A stretch of DNA of 64,000 nucleotides, taken from positions 831 through 64,830 of the forward strand of contig JAGBGX010000016.1 in the NCBI GenBank assembly GCA_017935745.1, given 5' to 3'. Below, piece after piece: positions 5,137 through 63,900 of the stretch (the stretch's first letter is position 1; every line of letters starts with the position of its first letter). The position numbers and the translations under genes were made by a program. Below the pieces are notes generated by a model. The model ran no database searches and was not told the origin of the DNA. It was given only the letters and a program-made list of their open reading frames with translations. The DNA is from Treponema sp. (lineage in GTDB: Bacteria > Spirochaetota > Spirochaetia > Treponematales > Treponemataceae).

Positions 5137-6123
5137 TCAGTCAACATCGAGATCTTTCAAATCAACAGGATCACTCATTGATGTAATCATCCAACCAAGC
5201 CTTTTTGAAGAAGGAACTGATAGAGACCATCTTCTTTGCACCATGATAGTGTTACAGTCGTACCTGTTTGCATTTTCAAGCCACTTTTTGTATTCGCCTA
5301 AAGTGCCGTCCATAAGACCAATTGTATCAAATATTTTATTATCACTTTTATCTATATAACTATAATAAAGATCGCCTCCAATCCACTGTGTATATGAACG
5401 CCAGTGATCAGGATCTCCTACACAAACAGCAGCACCGTCACAGTTTTCCGCCTTCTTGGCTCCCTGAGGAAAGGCGAACTGTATATCAGGATCTTTAAAG
5501 TGAATAAAAATCACAGGTTTTTCTTCCGAATTGCCTTCACTATCCGTAAAGTCACCATTTTTTTCTGGAGAATACATTGTAACCACAGGCTTAAAATCGC
5601 TCCTGCTGGCTTTGATTCTTCCAAGGCCGCCAACTGCTGTAACGGTAACATGATCAGTGACAATATTCTTTCTCCAGTCAAGAGCACTATGATCAGAAGG
5701 ATCAAAGTCTACATCAATTGTGTATGTTTTTCCCGGCTCAACAAGCGGATACACAAGACCGTCCATATCTTCCATATCAACAGGACTTGCTTCCGGCGTA
5801 ATAGTGCCATCAGATTCTGCCGGATTACACCAAATATTGATATGCCCCACGCCGCCTAATTTCTCGATGCTGTCAGGAACTCTTATGTTAAAGTGAATGC
5901 CGTCACTTTCCGCCCATGCAGTCACTGCCTTGCGGCCGTCAGATGAAAGCAGCTCGCCTGAAACTGCCCCTTCCGGCTGAAAACCATTTGCACTGGAATT
6001 TCCTGAAGCTTCAGTATTTGAACCAAAACTGCCTGAGCCTGAATCCGAGCCGTCCGAGCAGGAAACAAACACCGCCGCTGCCATAATCAGGGCCGAAACA
6101 AATGAGAGCGCGCTTTTTTTCAT
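5137..6123 (-). CDS. Spirochaetal lipoprotein of unknown function
   Basis: MKKSALSFVSALIMAAAVFVS-C lipobox followed by a Ser/Gly-rich tether. Confidence 0.85.
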   Translation of the reverse strand: MKKSALSFVSALIMAAAVFVSCSDGSDSGSGSFGSNTEASGNSSANGFQPEGAVSGELLSSDGRKAVTAWAESDGIHFNIRVPDSIEKLGGVGHINIWCNPAESDGTITPEASPVDMEDMDGLVYPLVEPGKTYTIDVDFDPSDHSALDWRKNIVTDHVTVTAVGGLGRIKASRSDFKPVVTMYSPEKNGDFTDSEGNSEEKPVIFIHFKDPDIQFAFPQGAKKAENCDGAAVCVGDPDHWRSYTQWIGGDLYYSYIDKSDNKIFDTIGLMDGTLGEYKKWLENANRYDCNTIMVQRRWSLSVPSSKRLGWMITSMSDPVDLKDLDVD

Positions 6124-6155
6124 AAAAAGCCTCCGTAGAATGAAATTTCACTTCC

Positions 6156-6182
6156 ATTCTACCCCCCCCCGATTTTTGTCAA
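6156..6182 (-). promoter_or_regulatory. Promoter with G9 in the -35/-10 spacer
   Basis: TTGACA-AAAATC-G9-TAGAAT (spacer 15), 33 nt upstream of the lipoprotein ATG. Confidence 0.75.
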
Positions 6183-23599: not shown

Positions 23600-24683
23600 C
23601 TAGAATGAATAGGTATATGTCAGCGGAAAGGAAATGAATGTGTCTCCGTCAACCGTTTCATAATTTACGCCTGCCTCAAAAGAATGGTTTCCGTACGCAT
23701 AGCCGATATTCGGATTCACGCCGATAACAGGCTTTTCTCCATCGGAAGAATTGTCAACAAGAAGGATTCCCGTGACATTTGCCGTGAACGACTCTGTAAA
23801 ATCATAGGCAGCCGTGCAAGCCACATACAAGTCATAGTCTGAATCCTTGTCATCCAAGTTCGCAAGAATTTCCGCAGCCACGCCAAATGCGCCAGCTGAA
23901 TACTCGGCCGCAGCACTCAAAAGATTTTCTCCGAACACACCGAATTCCTCTGAAATGCTCAGGTCATCAAATCCGGCAGCCTTTTCCTTGCTGTACGAGT
24001 ACCCCCCCCCGGATAACAAGCTCCTGCTCTGCAAGCGGCGCAACCTGCGCAAAAATGCCGAACGCCCTCTGGTCGCTGTCAGCAGCATCCTGAACAGAAG
24101 CCCCCGCAGAAAACAGCTCGCCCCATGCATAGCTGATTCCAAAGCCAACGTTGAACTTCATGTCAGAATCATCTTCATTTTTTCCGCTGAAGAAATTGAC
24201 ATCGTCTTCCCCGCCAAACGGAGCTGTTGCAGAAACGCTCAGTCCGTCTATCGGCCGGAAAATAACTGTAAATCCGTCCGAGCCGAAATTTCCCGTGCTC
24301 AGATTGTCATCATAAATCGGAAGATACGAACCGTCTGAATAAATGTCCTCATGAAATCCAAGCGACAGCTTTTCAACCGGGCGGAATTCAACAAACCAGT
24401 CAATGTCATCCCACGCCACGCCGAAATTCCTGCCGTTCCAGTCATCCAGTATAAACGTGACATCAATTCCGGCGTCAAGCCGTTCCGATGTAAACAGAAC
24501 GACCGCATTTTCTTCAATTCCGGCAAAATCTGTTTCCGTGCCGTCCGCACCGTAGGAACCGCCTTTTTTTATTGACGCGACATCAGACGAAAGCTCGCTT
24601 GTGAATTCAACCGTCTGGGCAGACAGACTGAAGCCGGCAAAAAGCAGCGGAACAAGAACCGCGGCAGCCTTATTGATTTTCAT
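23600..24683 (-). pseudogene. Outer-membrane beta-barrel protein frameshifted at a G9 tract (possible phase-OFF allele)
   Basis: Signal-peptide ORF 24683-23967 and barrel C-terminus ending TYTYSF join as ...VIRGGYSYSK... if G9 (C24002-24010) is G8; product 360 aa. Confidence 0.85.
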
Positions 24684-34111: not shown

Positions 34112-34282
34112 GATTTCCTCTGGTTATATTATAGTAAAAATTGTGATGATTCTTACAGTATACCGAAACGAATGCAAAACTTCAATCGCAAAAAAAAGCG
34201 GGAAAAAGCGAATGATGAATAAAAGCCCGGAGACACGGAAGCAATGTTCAAGGAGCGTTTTTTGTGGTCGTCAACACTTGGT

Positions 34283-35209
34283 TTACATCGTACGGTCATC
34301 AATACTTTGCGTAGCGGCAATGCTGTTGATGATAACCTTGAATTCGTCTGCTCTACGTTCGTAACGTAAAGATTGATTGTTAACTTTATCATTAGAGACC
34401 ATATCATTTAGCCCATATAAACTTTCGTTATACAAGGCTAACTCGATGACTTTCTTTAACACTGCCGAATCAGTGTTGGTCATACCAGCAATGTTGTTTA
34501 ACGATTTGTTCATAATCGCTTTGGCTTTGTCCACGGTTAGTTCATTGTAACTAAGGTTAGCCATAGCCAACTCGGAGACATAAGTATTTTCGGGTAAGTC
34601 CTTCATGTCTCTATTGGCTTGCAACGCTAGAGAACCCTTACCCATTCCCAGCGATTCATTGTAGGCATTATGTGCCAGTTTGTAATAACTGGCTACATAG
34701 GCGTGATAATCTTCGGTAGTATAATTACTTAAAAGAACGTTTTCCATTTTATCGAAAAGGGGGGCAAAGGCGTAGTAATTGGCGTTAATATTATCGGCAA
34801 TGTTTTGTTCGCTGTTGTATTTTTGTAACACCGTGTCAATCATTTTGTAATAATTATTGTCGGTTTGCCCAGTAACCGCCGTTTGTAATTCAGTAACTTT
34901 TTGGCGCATAAATTTTTGAGCCATGGTGTAGGCATCGGTAAATTTTTGATTCTTAACCGCTTGTTCTTCGTAATACCACTCAGTATCTTCGGCAACAAAT
35001 TTTTGACCACCCAATTCTTCGTCGATGTAGTATGCGGGGTATTGATCGGGGTTAACGGGGTTGGTCGGTTCGGTGGGGTCAATGCCGGGGTTAACGGGAT
35101 TGGTGGGTTCTTCGTAGTAATTGTCGTTACTCGTGCTGCTTCCGACGGAACACCCTGTGAGAACCACCGCTGTTGTAATAACAGCTGAAATTTTTACAAT
35201 TTTTTTCAT
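34283..35209 (-). CDS. AT-rich lipoprotein with Pro/Asn tether
   Basis: MKKIVKISAVITTAVVLTG-C; EPTNPVNP twice; GGAGG RBS at 35215-35219. Confidence 0.85.
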   Translation of the reverse strand: MKKIVKISAVITTAVVLTGCSVGSSTSNDNYYEEPTNPVNPGIDPTEPTNPVNPDQYPAYYIDEELGGQKFVAEDTEWYYEEQAVKNQKFTDAYTMAQKFMRQKVTELQTAVTGQTDNNYYKMIDTVLQKYNSEQNIADNINANYYAFAPLFDKMENVLLSNYTTEDYHAYVASYYKLAHNAYNESLGMGKGSLALQANRDMKDLPENTYVSELAMANLSYNELTVDKAKAIMNKSLNNIAGMTNTDSAVLKKVIELALYNESLYGLNDMVSNDKVNNQSLRYERRADEFKVIINSIAATQSIDDRTM

Positions 35210-35225
35210 GTAATCCTCCACATAA

Positions 35226-35275
35226 GAAAAAGTTGAAACCAGATTACCCCCCCCCGCCATTTTGTCAAGCATTTT
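35226..35275 (-). promoter_or_regulatory. Poly-G promoter block, copy A
   Basis: TTGACA-AAATGGC-G9-TAATCT (spacer 16); 36 bp (35240-35275) identical to 38441-38476. Confidence 0.8.
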
Positions 35276-35330
35276 CTGTATTTTTTCAGGTATATATGAA
35301 GTGAAGAGGAAAAAACAACAGCATATACAT

Positions 35331-36224
35331 ATGGAAACAAAAGCATCTGCCGCTCCCTGCCCGCTCACGCTCGAAGAAAAATGGGAGCGGGCAACACTCG
35401 CGGACAACTTCATCTTCTATAAGATCATGTCGGAAAATCCCGGCGTCTGCAAGGAGCTTCTGGAGATCCTGCTTGGAATCGAAATTGACCGCCTCGAAAA
35501 ACCTATCGCAGAAAAGAATGCCAAGGTTGACTACGACTCGAAAGGTATCCGCTTCGATGTGTACACCAAGGGCGGAGGACGCTGCTTCGATATCGAAATG
35601 CAGACAGCCGGCCGCCAGAACCTCGCAAAGCGGGCGCGCTACTACCAGGGGCTGATGGACGTGGACACGCTGAAGGCAGGCGAAGCGTACAGCGCGCTCA
35701 AGGACAGCTACGTCATCTTCCTGTGCATGGGCGACTTTATCGGGAGCGGGCTTCCCGTCAGCACGTTCGAGAACATCTGCCGCGAAGACAAAGGCATCGC
35801 GCTCAACGACCGCGCCTACAAAGTCTTTTTCAACGCGGAGAAATATGATACAATGGCAGACAGGGAACAGAAATCATTCTTTAAATTTCTGCGTTGCGGC
35901 GCGTCCGAATCGGCGTTCACAAAAAAGCTTGATGCCATGGTGGAGCGGGCAAAACACAACGCACAGTGGAGGCATCAGTTTATGACATGGAGCATAGCAA
36001 TGCAAGATGCGGTAGATGCCGCAGTTGAAGAGGCGGTGGAGATTGCCGTTGAGCAGGAGCGCGCGCGGAGCCTGCAAGAGGGCGCGCAGCAGAAAGCATT
36101 CGAGACCGCGCGGAAAATGCTGGAAACAAACATCGGCACCATGGAACAGATTGCCGATATTGCCGGACTTCCCCTTGAGCAGGTGGAGCAGCTCCAGCAG
36201 GAACTGTGCGCTGCGGAAAAATAA
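35331..36224 (+). CDS. Rpn-family recombination-promoting nuclease / putative transposase (PD-(D/E)XK type)
   Basis: DNFIFYKIM, GIRFDVYT...FDIEMQ, KRARYYQGLMD, SYVIFLC, variable helical C-terminal tail. Confidence 0.92.
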   Translation: METKASAAPCPLTLEEKWERATLADNFIFYKIMSENPGVCKELLEILLGIEIDRLEKPIAEKNAKVDYDSKGIRFDVYTKGGGRCFDIEMQTAGRQNLAKRARYYQGLMDVDTLKAGEAYSALKDSYVIFLCMGDFIGSGLPVSTFENICREDKGIALNDRAYKVFFNAEKYDTMADREQKSFFKFLRCGASESAFTKKLDAMVERAKHNAQWRHQFMTWSIAMQDAVDAAVEEAVEIAVEQERARSLQEGAQQKAFETARKMLETNIGTMEQIADIAGLPLEQVEQLQQELCAAEK

Positions 36225-36284
36225 CAGCTTTATTTGCCAGGAATCAGCCTTTTTTTACCTGGCGTTTTGTGCTATACTTCCTGC

Positions 36285-37115
36285 ATGGAAAAAACGATTC
36301 TCATCGCAGGAAAAAACATGCCGGATGCCGGGACGTTCACAGACGGAATTTCAGTTTCGGGCAGGAATATTATTGTAACCGGGCCGCAAAACAGAACTGA
36401 CGAGCCGCCAAAGAAGCTTACAATTGCCGAGCGCAAGTCAAATCAGGCGGCGTATGAAGAGGAAAAAAATCAGGAGGCAAAATCAGGGCTTTGCACAATC
36501 GAATGGAACAAGTCTTCTCCGCTTTCCGCACGCTCGCTCGTTTTGCAGACAATCACGATTTTCGGGCGGATGGACGAAGCCGTGCTTTTCTTTGACGAGG
36601 AATGGTTCGCTTCCCGGGCTGAAAAAATGGACAGCGAGGAAATTTCCCGCGGCTGCGATGAAATGATTGCAGGCTATCAGTATCTTGCAGTAGAAATCAT
36701 TTCAACATTCCAGAAAAAAGACGCATCGGAAGCTCCCGGCACGCTCGTCTTCCTGCTCAAGGAAACTCCTTCCCGGGCTGATGTTCTGCATGACTCCACG
36801 CTGAACAACGGGCTGCGCTCAATTGCATCTCCGCTCGTGTCTGCCGGTGCCGCAGCATTTGTGTCTTTTGCCGAAAATCTTGCGGCCGTCTGCGCAGACT
36901 CCGCCTTTGTAAATGTAGTGCTCGTGCGCGACTCAAGCGCAGCAGAAGGATACCGCCGCGATGATGAGACAGGAAGATGGCTGTGCACGTACCTGAACAG
37001 CCTGGAGGACGGAACGCAAAAGCCGGGAAAGAAAACGGTGCAATGGATACGCCCCGGTGTAAAGCAGCCGTCTTCAGGCGGATTCAAATTCTTTAAAAGG
37101 CAAGCCCGCTCATGA
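36285..37115 (+). CDS. Hypothetical protein (Rossmann-like, SDR-derived?)
   Basis: Long ORF with core-like codon usage, coupled to the MgtC-family gene by an ATGA overlap. Confidence 0.7.
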   Translation: MEKTILIAGKNMPDAGTFTDGISVSGRNIIVTGPQNRTDEPPKKLTIAERKSNQAAYEEEKNQEAKSGLCTIEWNKSSPLSARSLVLQTITIFGRMDEAVLFFDEEWFASRAEKMDSEEISRGCDEMIAGYQYLAVEIISTFQKKDASEAPGTLVFLLKETPSRADVLHDSTLNNGLRSIASPLVSAGAAAFVSFAENLAAVCADSAFVNVVLVRDSSAAEGYRRDDETGRWLCTYLNSLEDGTQKPGKKTVQWIRPGVKQPSSGGFKFFKRQARS

Positions 37116-37777
37116 CGGAAGCCGGTTTTCTTTTTGAGAGCATTATAAAGATTCTTGCAGGAGCATTGTGCGGCGCGCTTCTCGGATTCGAGCGGAAAAG
37201 CCACAACCGGGCCATCGGAATGCGCACGCTGATTCTTATATGCGTTTCCTCAACGCTGCTTTCCGAGCTTTCAGTCTGGATGGCTTTGGCAGGAAGAGGA
37301 GATCCTGCGCGGATTGCGGCGGGCGTAATCAGCGGAATCGGGTTCCTTGGCGGCGGCGCGATCATGAAGCAGGGCATGAACATCAAGGGGCTTACTTCGG
37401 CTGCCATAATCTGGACCGCGGCATCATTCGGGCTTGCGATTGGAGCCGGGCTGTACGTGCAGGTCGGAATCGCGCTCGCGCTCACGCTGTTCCTGCTGAT
37501 TTTTCTGGAGCGGGTCGAAGCGAAATGGTTTCCGGCGCAGAAGAACAAGACGCTTCAGCTCTGCTTTGCAAATGAACCGCCCGACATGAAAAAGCTCAAG
37601 GAAGCAGTCCAGGCGCACGGCCTGATTATCATCGACATGAACGTGAGCCGCATCATTTCTGAAAGGCAGACTGTCATCCGCTATCTGGTGAAAGTTCCCA
37701 AGGAAGACGACTTTTCAACGCTTATTGAATCCCTGAAGGCAATCGGAACCCTCAGCGAATTTTCAATCGCGGACTGA
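37112..37777 (+). CDS. MgtC/SapB family membrane protein
   Basis: GALLGFER...AIGMRTLIL, DPARIAAGVISGIGFLGGGAI, GLTSAAIIW. Confidence 0.93.
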   Translation: MTEAGFLFESIIKILAGALCGALLGFERKSHNRAIGMRTLILICVSSTLLSELSVWMALAGRGDPARIAAGVISGIGFLGGGAIMKQGMNIKGLTSAAIIWTAASFGLAIGAGLYVQVGIALALTLFLLIFLERVEAKWFPAQKNKTLQLCFANEPPDMKKLKEAVQAHGLIIIDMNVSRIISERQTVIRYLVKVPKEDDFSTLIESLKAIGTLSEFSIAD

Positions 37778-37878
37778 ACACCTCTGAAAAGACAGCAAAA
37801 AGAAGCTCCTCCTGCGATACAGTAATCTGCATCATAAAAGGAGCTTCAGGAGGCTTGTGCCGCTTGAGACAAAAGCGG

Positions 37879-38406
37879 TTATCTGGTGAACTTCAAGTCA
37901 AAGGTTAATAAACGATAGTCCGTGCTGTTCTTCTTAACAGGAACAGTGCCTTTCATAGTAAAAGTGCTGCTTTCTGGATTTGTCATTTCAATTTTATTTG
38001 AAGCCGCAACCGTACCCCAGTAATAGGCATCTTTATACTTTATTATATCACTACTAAATGTTATTGATTCCTTTCCCATCGGAATATTTGAATCACCACT
38101 CCACGAAGCTTCAAATTTATATTTCTTCTCATTTGTCTGATTATAAGCTGAAACTTCCCAAGAAATCTGGCCTGCATCCACAGCACACAAAACAGTCCTC
38201 GCATCTTCTGCTGCTATGATTTTTCTTGTGTTCTTGTTCTCCTCAGCTTCAATATAGCTGACATCTCCTTCCGCTGTAAGCCTATAACTATAACTCCTGT
38301 CTGTGGTAGTCGTATCGACATCACCATCGATTTCCACTTCCTTCTGGCAAGATGCAAGCATCATCACCGACACAATGCCCGCGAGGGCAACCATTGCTTT
38401 TTTCAT
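37879..38406 (-). CDS. AT-rich lipoprotein
   Basis: MKKAMVALAGIVSVMMLAS-C lipobox. Confidence 0.85.
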   Translation of the reverse strand: MKKAMVALAGIVSVMMLASCQKEVEIDGDVDTTTTDRSYSYRLTAEGDVSYIEAEENKNTRKIIAAEDARTVLCAVDAGQISWEVSAYNQTNEKKYKFEASWSGDSNIPMGKESITFSSDIIKYKDAYYWGTVAASNKIEMTNPESSTFTMKGTVPVKKNSTDYRLLTFDLKFTR

Positions 38407-38426
38407 ACGTTTTCTCCTTAAAAGTA

Positions 38427-38476
38427 TAAAAATCTGAAATCAGATTACCCCCCCCCGCCATTTTGTCAAGCATTTT
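38427..38476 (-). promoter_or_regulatory. Poly-G promoter block, copy B
   Basis: TTGACA-AAATGGC-G9-TAATCT; C9 at 38448-38456; direct repeat of copy A. Confidence 0.8.
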
Positions 38477-38656
38477 TTCAGATAAAAATATTTTTTTATT
38501 ATGAAAATTTTCTGTTGAAGAAACTGCGGCAAACATATATTATTGAAAGAAAGCGGCGCTGATTTGCGCGGAGAGCCATATCCGCCTTCCGGCTGAAATA
38601 TACAATTGCAAGGAACGCACTGCGTTACAATCCGTCTATTTTTCAGGAAGTGAAAG

Positions 38657-40138: not shown

Positions 40139-40302
40139 AGGCTGCATGCCCTTGCCCTTCAGATACGCCGTTTTAGCGGCTGTGTTTAAACGTTCCGGCA
40201 ATACAATTTTCCGGCACCGCTTCACTAAACGCTTCATTTGTGATAAGATACATTCTACTGCCAAGCAGATTTTGCAAAAGCAGTTTATAACAGGATTGCA
40301 AA

Positions 40303-63367: not shown

Positions 63368-63900
63368 TTAACAACGCTCCTTGATTTTTCTAGCCGGGAC
63401 ACCTGCATATACGCAATTCGGTTCAGTTGATTTTGTAACGACTGCACCGGCACCGATTACACAGTTATCAGCAATCTTTATATTTCCAATCACAATGGAA
63501 TGAACTCCCATATTCACATTATCACCTATTACAGGAACTCCAAAATTACCAGCACCAATCACCCCCCCCGAATTACAAGATTTTTACCAATCTCAGTCTT
63601 TCCATTTATTACAACCCCTGTACAATGATGAATTACAAAACCACCACCAATTCTTGTTCTTGAAGGAATATCACAACCATTCTTTAATGAGATATATCTG
63701 TATAAAAATCGCTCCATACAATAAATTGGAAACAATACTTTTTTCGTCCGAAGAAACTGACACAATCTAAAATGAAAAACTATTTTAAATTCACGTAAAG
63801 TTAAAAACAAAAAGAAAAAATTTATTTTCTCTCTACCAAGTTCTATTCTCCATGCTTCCTTATCACTATTTAATAAATCCAAAAATTCAAAAAACTTCAT
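63368..63900 (-). pseudogene. Serine-acetyltransferase-like (LbH) O-acetyltransferase frameshifted at a G8 tract
   Basis: IGGGFVIHHCTGVVINGKTEIGKNLVIR-G8-TGA; continuation VIGAGNFGVPVIGDNV...IGAGAVVTK...YAGVPAR is in another frame; G9 or G12 restores it. Confidence 0.88.

Follow-up and report, generated by a model that had tools for sequence, protein, structure and literature searches.

Poly-G promoters, in all probability phase-variable, head lipoprotein genes across the genome of an uncultured gut Treponema

This report concerns a 36-nucleotide (nt) block which is present twice in a 64,000-nt stretch of the genome of an uncultured gut Treponema (assembly GCA_017935745.1, contig JAGBGX010000016.1, forward-strand positions 831 to 64,830; this whole stretch is called the window below, and positions are those of the window), each time ahead of a different predicted lipoprotein gene. 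We consider it highly probable that the block is a phase-variable promoter of the sigma-70 type, one of a class of such promoters that heads lipoprotein modules throughout the genome and its clade, and that the interval between the two copies, which includes a gene of the Rpn family, is not a cargo of the repeats. The type of switch is already known; what is new here is the host (a commensal gut Treponema), the scale, and the stereotyped grammar of the promoters.

The repeated block

On the plus strand the block reads CAGATTA-C9-GCCATTTTGTCAAGCATTTT, and it is found as an exact 36-mer at 35240-35275 and 38441-38476, in direct orientation, exactly as an earlier note made from the letters of the window had claimed. 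These two are the only matches at up to three mismatches, and none was obtained in 100 shuffles. Similarity between the copies reaches 62 nt at 85% identity, and their start-to-start distance is 3201 nt. Read on the minus strand, both copies have the sequence AAAATGC-TTGACA-AAATGGC-G9-TAATCT-G, and a ribosome-binding site (RBS) with the ATG of an open reading frame (ORF) encoding a signal peptide follows 37-41 nt after each block. Each copy would thus be a minus-strand promoter of the sigma-70 type (TTGACA, 16-nt spacer, TAATCT) in which nine of the 16 spacer bases form a G homopolymer. The hexamer and tract coordinates given here were verified base by base:

35241..35268, minus strand: promoter copy 1, upstream of lipoA (-35 TTGACA at 35263-35268; -10 TAATCT at 35241-35246)
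35247-35262, minus strand: spacer of promoter copy 1, 16 nt, AAATGGC followed by G9 (G9 at 35247-35255)
38442..38469, minus strand: promoter copy 2, upstream of lipoB (-35 TTGACA at 38464-38469; -10 TAATCT at 38442-38447)
minus strand, within promoter copy 2: spacer, AAATGGC followed by G9 (G9 at 38448-38456)
34283-35209, minus strand: lipoA, 308 amino acids (aa), signal peptide and LTGC lipobox (MKKIVKISAVITTAVVLTGCS), Pro-rich linker
37879-38406, minus strand: lipoB, predicted lipoprotein of 175 aa, signal peptide and lipobox (MKKAMVALAGIVSVMMLASC)

The presence of a signal peptide and a lipobox in both lipoA and lipoB bears out the idea that a different lipoprotein gene stands behind each copy.

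A separate observation concerns the other strand. The reverse complement of the -35 box is TTGTCA, on the plus strand (35263-35268 for copy 1; the 38463-38492 region for copy 2), and at copy 2 the promoter scan pairs this TTGTCA with AATATT at 18 bp. A divergent, back-to-back promoter, directed toward the hydrogenase gene at copy 2 and toward rpn at copy 1, is therefore possible from the sequence.

A genome-wide class of promoters

By its PheT relatives the organism is a Treponema of gut or rumen type. Its genome (2.64 Mb in 20 contigs) contains 84 G/C runs of at least 7 nt, 79 of them G8 or G9. The length spectrum of G/C runs is bimodal, with 407 runs of 5 nt, 21 of 6, 2 of 7, 35 of 8, 44 of 9, 2 of 10 and 1 of 12. 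The 44 runs of 9 nt compare with 8.7 expected, and with far less than one if the observed decay is extrapolated. This bimodality means that the G8/G9 tracts are a distinct, maintained population. Their immediate context is also characteristic: the tract is preceded by C in 65 of the 84 cases and followed by T in 60 (by TA in 57), in coding and intergenic contexts alike (50 tracts are coding and 34 intergenic, an approximate division since the simple ORF caller over-extends starts). Indeed, the pattern C-G8/9-TA occurs 43 times in the genome, against none for the reversed control pattern.

A substantial part of this population sits in promoters of one design. The near-identical core CTTGACAA(A/G)ATGGC-G8/9-TA was found by motif search at 8 genome sites, and the broader layout TTGACA-N6-10-G8/9-TAnnnT at 20, with N7 in 14 of them. 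The ORF downstream carries a signal peptide and a lipobox at 17 of the 20 sites and a signal peptide at two more, and the 20 ORFs fall into about 11 unrelated families. The modules are spread over at least nine contigs, several lipoB paralogs standing together only at C9:217-222 kb. The genome-wide search for copies that the earlier note had called for thus reveals 20 sites in place of only two, and, as described below, the cargo behind copy 2 is not fixed among strains and the tract is not constant in length. We would describe the design of the class as cTTGACA-N6-10-G8/9-TAnnnT, after which come a 5' untranslated region (5'UTR) some 30 nt long, an RBS and the signal peptide of a lipoprotein, each unit being in all appearance a self-contained single-gene module. 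A third module lies in the window itself:

5137..6182, minus strand: third module (TTGACA 6177-6182, AAAATC, G9 6162-6170, TAGAAT 6156-6161)
5137-6123, minus strand: lipoprotein gene of the third module, 328 aa

The class is also present beyond this genome. Five sister species have 9-14 TTGACA-N6-8-G8+-TA sites each, versus 0-1 for the control pattern, and the sites examined in these species are mostly upstream of lipoproteins; in 24 sampled genomes of the same genus the C-G8/9-TA motif occurs 0-8 times each. An exact-motif scan of the wider contig collection gave two matches in unrelated metagenome-assembled genomes (MAGs), which we took as likely due to chance.

What, then, is particular to the two copies from which we started? 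The 29-nt core of the block is also present at C9:217810, C9:222378 and C13:282302, and the identity private to the pair amounts to about 6 nt (AAAATG versus AAAGGG) plus the shared G9 state. The 36-nt identity might hence stem from a recent local gene conversion or duplication between neighbours, and have no meaning beyond membership of the family, a possibility for which we would call the balance even. The small size of the pair-specific addition to a core found in three other promoters agrees with it, as does the presence of both upstream variants in other strains at the site of copy 2 (slot B, see below). This idea is uncontradicted; it is compatible with a class of phase-variable promoters and is folded into that explanation.

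About 60 of the tracts lie outside the canonical promoter. Many of these are found on the sense strand of an ORF, close to its 5' end or at its end. Their position suggests that the tracts within ORFs are frameshift switches. In the window, G/C tracts are located at 6162-6170, 24002-24010, 35247-35255, 38448-38456 and 63562-63569. We also noticed a multi-copy sequence which breaks the assembly at contig ends (C1:406, C2:77689, C6:3, C11:3, C14:79567, C15:92, C16:92), other contig ends being rRNA. It starts with a G8 or G9 tract, 54-55 nt upstream of an ORF starting MRTKARGVRPFF (326 aa in C11), and could represent a family of repeated genes that has a G tract of its own.

Spacer length and variation of the tract

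The promoters of this genome provide their own yardstick for the spacer. TTGACA...TAnnnT pairs without a G tract peak at 17 bp (115 pairs), versus 11, 30 and 35 pairs at 15, 16 and 18 bp, and since ordinary promoters peak at 17 bp, the local RNA polymerase has the usual optimum. A peak as sharp as this one is by itself a usable promoter model for an uncultured Treponema. The pairs that hold a G tract are mostly spaced by 15 bp (8 pairs) or 16 bp (9 pairs), so that one G more or less shifts such a promoter toward or away from the optimum.

We propose that slipped-strand mispairing at the G tract during replication would gain or lose one G, that the distance between -35 and -10 would become 15, 16 or 17 bp in the process, and that the strength of the promoter would be altered by this change. 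Each lipoprotein would then be switched, or dimmed, stochastically and independently of the others, which would amount to phase variation of the surface. We infer that tract length controls transcription, with G9 (16 bp) probably active, G8 (15 bp) probably weak or off, and G10 (17 bp) probably maximal. The genes under control are putative envelope proteins, as indicated by their predicted signal peptides and lipoboxes, and their surface exposure is a prediction of the same kind.

Variation of the tract was followed by comparing short-read contigs between samples, the public runs with the region being gut, faecal and rat-gut metagenomes. At promoter 1 the tract is G8 rather than G9 in L023 and L027. 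L023 can be compared with L024 and L029, contigs from different runs of the same study. L023 differs from L024 by no mismatch and one gap over 3334 nt, and from L029 by the same over 2791 nt, and the sole gap falls where promoter 1 has G8 in one contig and G9 in the other. At promoter 3, that of the third module, X12, X14, X15 and X21, all four from one rat study, have G8; X25 has G9, together with the same flanking single-nucleotide polymorphisms (SNPs) as the G8 runs wherever these are covered. Orthologous promoters among sister species vary in the number of G as well (G9 versus G11; CCCC-G8 versus CCC-G9), and several assemblies break exactly at G tracts. Differences confined to the tract between contigs, haplotypes with shared SNPs, and the G numbers of sister species are, as we read these sequences, the signature of slipped-strand mispairing.

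It could be argued that the G tract is instead a static element (the site of a regulator, or a rigid spacer common to a lipoprotein regulon) and that the G8/G9 differences reflect slow divergence or assembly error. The lengths are indeed very narrow, 79 of the 84 tracts being G8 or G9, there is conservation both in the non-G part of the spacer (AAATGGC or the like) and in the C...TA flanks, and a CRP-like regulator also acts on poly-G tpr promoters in T. pallidum (PMC7864442). We nevertheless hold this proposal to be very improbable, because nothing but the tract distinguishes contigs of one study over 3.3 kb, because haplotypes sharing SNPs differ in tract length, because G8/G9 tracts are also found within coding regions, where the regulator-site reading fails, and because G runs of 8 nt or more are established mutational hot spots (PMC7864442). 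The static element and the switch are in any case not mutually exclusive.

Several points weigh against a phase-variable promoter and should be acknowledged. TAATCT fits TATAAT at three of six positions only, which is why a simple promoter scan missed both copies; they were assigned as promoters by family alignment of the promoter class. Short-read contigs can mis-assemble the length of a homopolymer, and the G8/G9 mixture seen at promoter 3 in X5 can be read in more than one way, since the k-mers that span the tract also occur at a paralogous promoter. No consensus tract reaches the 17-bp optimum, so that the ON length is uncertain, and the G8/G9 range is narrower than in typical contingency loci. 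Finally, the RNA-labelled runs X4, X11 and X16 (Logan contigs) show flat, DNA-like coverage through the promoter, and for this reason give no transcription start site or expression signal.

The interval between the copies

The genes between the two copies are those that the earlier note had listed (rpn, a hypothetical gene, an mgtC-family gene and lipoprotein B), as ORFs and family searches agree:

35331-36224, plus strand: rpn, Rpn-family PD-(D/E)XK nuclease (TIGR01784, E 2.9e-26, 92.9 bits, cut-off 52.1; PF12784)
36285-37115, plus strand: hyp, conserved hypothetical protein of 276 aa, without family match
37112-37777, plus strand: mgtC, MgtC-family membrane protein (PF02308, E 3.9e-31)

Sequence searches of Pfam, NCBIfam and PDB gave no match for hyp, nor for lipoA or lipoB.

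Thirty genomes of the same genus or the same order were too distant for a comparison of synteny: nucleotide identity is about 70%, and pheT is not linked to the hydrogenase in them. Sister species suitable for this purpose were reached via PheT (81% identical). Two of them, represented by L048 and L050, have the order pheT, hyp-mgtC, [FeFe] hydrogenase, with protein identities to the window of 76-79% for hyp, 70% for MgtC and 92% for the hydrogenase. The gaps either side of hyp-mgtC are only about 100 nt in these two species, and neither lipoA, rpn, lipoB nor a poly-G was found at their pheT-hydrogenase locus. Four more distant congeners have hyp (32-52% identical), and mgtC adjoins it in three of the four. 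Since hyp-mgtC is kept between pheT and the hydrogenase in sister species, the core of the 3.2-kb segment is backbone. Judged by this synteny, hyp-mgtC is a vertically inherited core pair and not a cargo; it looks like a conserved two-gene operon (the stop of hyp overlaps the start of mgtC, as ATGA) in which hyp would be a partner of MgtC. What would be specific to the lineage of the window, by the same comparison, are two inserts, one of lipoA, promoter 1 and rpn (about 34112-36284), the other of lipoB and promoter 2 (about 37778-38560). In other words, a lipoA-promoter-rpn unit and a lipoB-promoter unit would have been inserted on either side of the ancestral pair. The third module also appears to be an insertion relative to sister species, for it is absent in five of them, where the orthologues of the flanking proteins of 268 aa and 138 aa are adjacent.

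These data bear directly on the proposal, made in the earlier note, that the two blocks are recombination sites bracketing a mobile or excisable 3.2-kb segment, and that Rpn helps to move the promoter or its cassettes. There is indeed a direct repeat with 36 nt of exact identity, rpn does belong to its family (TIGR01784, above cut-off), and the cargo of slot B does vary among strains. However, we regard this proposal as extremely unlikely. The hyp-mgtC pair inside it is ancestral, as sister species with neither rpn nor the two lipoproteins have the pair in synteny, so the segment is no excisable unit in our view. There is a single rpn in the 2.64 Mb, which leaves 18 of the 20 promoters without an rpn nearby. 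The gene has been deleted or truncated independently in at least five strains while hyp-mgtC, the promoters and both lipoprotein slots persist: in X17 a 727-nt deletion (35064-35790) takes out part of rpn, promoter 1 and the 5' end of lipoA; X11 has an rpn deletion at 35384-35941, with 11 nt of microhomology, and X12 one at 35312-35709, with a 28-nt filler; the rpn ORF is truncated in L026 and L027. In X1 the depth of the interval is 362, against 378 and 394 for the flanks. A role for Rpn as mobiliser was rejected on its copy number, its decay in strains and its absence from the loci of sister species, and the published role of Rpn is that of a toxin or antiphage protein (bioRxiv 10.1101/2023.05.02.539157).

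No junction of 35275 with 38441, as expected from excision, was seen in the contigs searched, the 36-nt repeat being longer than the Logan k of 31, so that a rare excision could have escaped this search. The only joint between the copies, in X12 (35270 to 38484, which "skips 3213"), was rejected as an excision product: it contains 13 foreign letters and matches a strain with a lipoA-like gene in slot B and an upstream flank of the GGGCTTGA type, the joint being the 5' end of that gene. An inversion-type switch, like the vsa or vpma shufflons, was rejected as well. The two copies have the same orientation, the repeats found in 33-41 kb include no inverted counterpart of the block, and apart from rpn no recombinase-like gene is present among the scanned ORFs of the interval.

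Rpn is a bystander here, in our reading, and by analogy with enterobacterial Rpn proteins probably a defence gene or one of toxin-antitoxin type. Enterobacterial Rpn (YhgA-like) proteins have a toxin/antiphage function with an intragenic antitoxin (bioRxiv 10.1101/2023.05.02.539157). The ORF at 35331-36224 resembles them in passing the TIGR01784 cut-off; the repeats are a different matter, since no link of Rpn to them was found and its known role is not the mobilisation of cassettes.

Exchange of the lipoprotein genes

Contigs encoding an identical MgtC have different genes downstream of mgtC, at the site that we call slot B. It is occupied by lipoB in the window, L021 and L028, and elsewhere by lipoA-like genes of three allele groups (80-93% identical mutually, 67-73% to lipoA), so that at least four different genes are found there among strains. 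On contigs that include the hydrogenase side, a promoter of this type is also present ahead of the alternative genes, TTGACA-AAAATGGC-G8-TAAATT in L034 and TTGATA-AAATGGC-G9-TAATAT in L035 and L042. The earlier note's suggestion of a portable promoter for exchangeable lipoproteins therefore holds in part, as poly-G promoters do stand before unrelated lipoproteins and the comparison across strains shows that the gene behind copy 2 changes; what falls away is the movement of an Rpn segment.

The paralogs of lipoB, of which the genome has six in all, lipoB included, indicate how such replacements could occur. In the paralogs on C13 and C9 the 5' part (signal peptide and CQKEVEIDGD) and the 3' end are conserved, and the mature middle is divergent. 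The conserved 5' stretch begins about 35 nt upstream of the -35 box, and the conserved 3' stretch consists of the last codons and the terminator (37795-37890), with a terminator-like site at 37815-37795:

37795..37880, minus strand: 3' end of the lipoB module with terminator hairpin, 92% identity to the paralog at C13:282926-283022

The 37795-37880 piece is present on other contigs too. Conserved ends around a divergent middle make a layout that favours replacement by homologous recombination, and slot B would most simply have been refilled with different lipoprotein genes in this manner, via the conserved promoter/5' and terminator ends. The gene lipoA has no paralog (its only match in the genome is itself), and it is mosaic among strains, with skips or replacements in X5, X12 and X16.

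One may go further and see in the promoter-lipoprotein units autonomous plug-in cassettes, occupying intergenic gaps of a conserved Treponema backbone and swapped among paralogous sites and strains. Each may comprise an A-rich upstream element, TTGACA-N7-Gn-TAnnnT, the 5'UTR and signal peptide, then a mature domain that varies and a terminator that does not, and the conserved promoter and terminator ends may serve as recombination handles. All three units of the window are insertions relative to sister species, and slot B is variable, which is the basis of this proposal; no dedicated insertion mechanism for cassettes was found. We think that this extended version is rather unlikely. If true, it would describe a system of dispersed gene cassettes that have a stochastic switch built in.

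Other differences among strains were noticed on the hydrogenase side. Most other strains have a 12-nt insertion (GAACGGCACTTT) at 38612, in the upstream region of the hydrogenase. An extra ORF of 279-283 aa lies between the hydrogenase gene and that of the NAD-binding subunit in L037, L039 and L041, accompanied in L037 and L039 by an additional ORF of 84 aa, and no Pfam match was obtained; the 279-283-aa ORF is absent from the window, where it would fall at about 40140-40300.

Relation to known systems

The closest parallel is found in the same genus. In T. pallidum, tp0126 (an OmpW homologue) has a poly-G between -35 and -10, with the best activity at 17 nt, tprE, tprG, tprJ, tprF, tprI and tprL carry a promoter poly-G, and tpr promoters respond to the number of G (PMC7864442). 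Of 17 further tracts in that species, 76% vary in length, and tract lengths vary within and between isolates, mostly over 8-10 G (PMC7864442). The likeness thus extends from the genus to a G run of about 8-10 nt inside a sigma-70-type promoter of an envelope gene. The differences are that our organism is a gut commensal (from rodent and other gut metagenomes), that it has more tracts (84, of which about 20 fall in a single stereotyped promoter), that its targets are lipoproteins instead of Tpr or OmpW barrels, and that a near-identical promoter and 5'UTR module is reused across unrelated families. The tp0126 and tpr promoters have been assayed as reporter fusions in E. coli K-12; the switch described here is a prediction from sequence.

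Outside the spirochetes, Neisseria meningitidis has a spacer poly-G in porA, whose length determines how far -35 and -10 are apart and so tunes transcription between high and absent, and a poly-C at the -35 of opc (as summarised in PMC7864442). The homopolymer within the promoter spacer is common to porA and to our promoters, but porA and opc are single loci in a proteobacterium and not a promoter module shared by several families of lipoproteins.

Mycoplasma hyorhinis and its Vlp lipoproteins, a system cited in PMC11868660 (refs 20-21), offer a parallel in overall architecture. Several lipoprotein genes have there each their own highly conserved promoter region, in which the length of a poly-A between -35 and -10 turns each gene ON or OFF on its own. 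Variation among the proteins falls in the mature part, behind a conserved leader and signal peptide, and the surface varies combinatorially as a result. The vlp genes are clustered in one locus, and the proteins vary in size by C-terminal tandem repeats. Our modules resemble this system in that many lipoprotein genes have each a conserved homopolymer promoter and leader, with a divergent mature part in the lipoB paralogs. They differ in being dispersed (over at least nine contigs), in heading about 11 unrelated families and in using poly-G. No obvious size variation based on repeats was seen in them, there having been no systematic test for it; the repeat listing for 33-41 kb includes a short Pro-rich repeat in lipoA, with 3 copies of 25 nt.

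In Campylobacter jejuni and Helicobacter pylori, contingency tracts are mainly intragenic frameshift switches, mostly tied to surface structures (PMC11868660). In our genome as in theirs, G/C tracts of at least 8 nt are in excess genome-wide and shorter runs are depleted; ours differs in that about a quarter of its tracts are located in promoter spacers of one fixed design.

Conclusion

Until now, studies of poly-G promoter switches in treponemes have dealt with the syphilis agent, and with switching as a trait of immune evasion. The device described here is larger and more stereotyped, a genome of 2.6 Mb having 84 tracts and about 20 lipoprotein promoters of this design, and it is found in at least six species of uncultured gut Treponema. 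The fixed grammar of the promoter provides a simple sequence rule to predict phase-variable lipoproteins in spirochete MAGs, and the assembly of surface repertoires can be studied in a natural setting in which the gene behind a conserved switch is replaced from strain to strain. Finally, our results suggest that poly-G switching is a general and probably ancestral way of surface diversification in the host throughout the genus, a diversification that could serve against antibodies, phages or changing niches.

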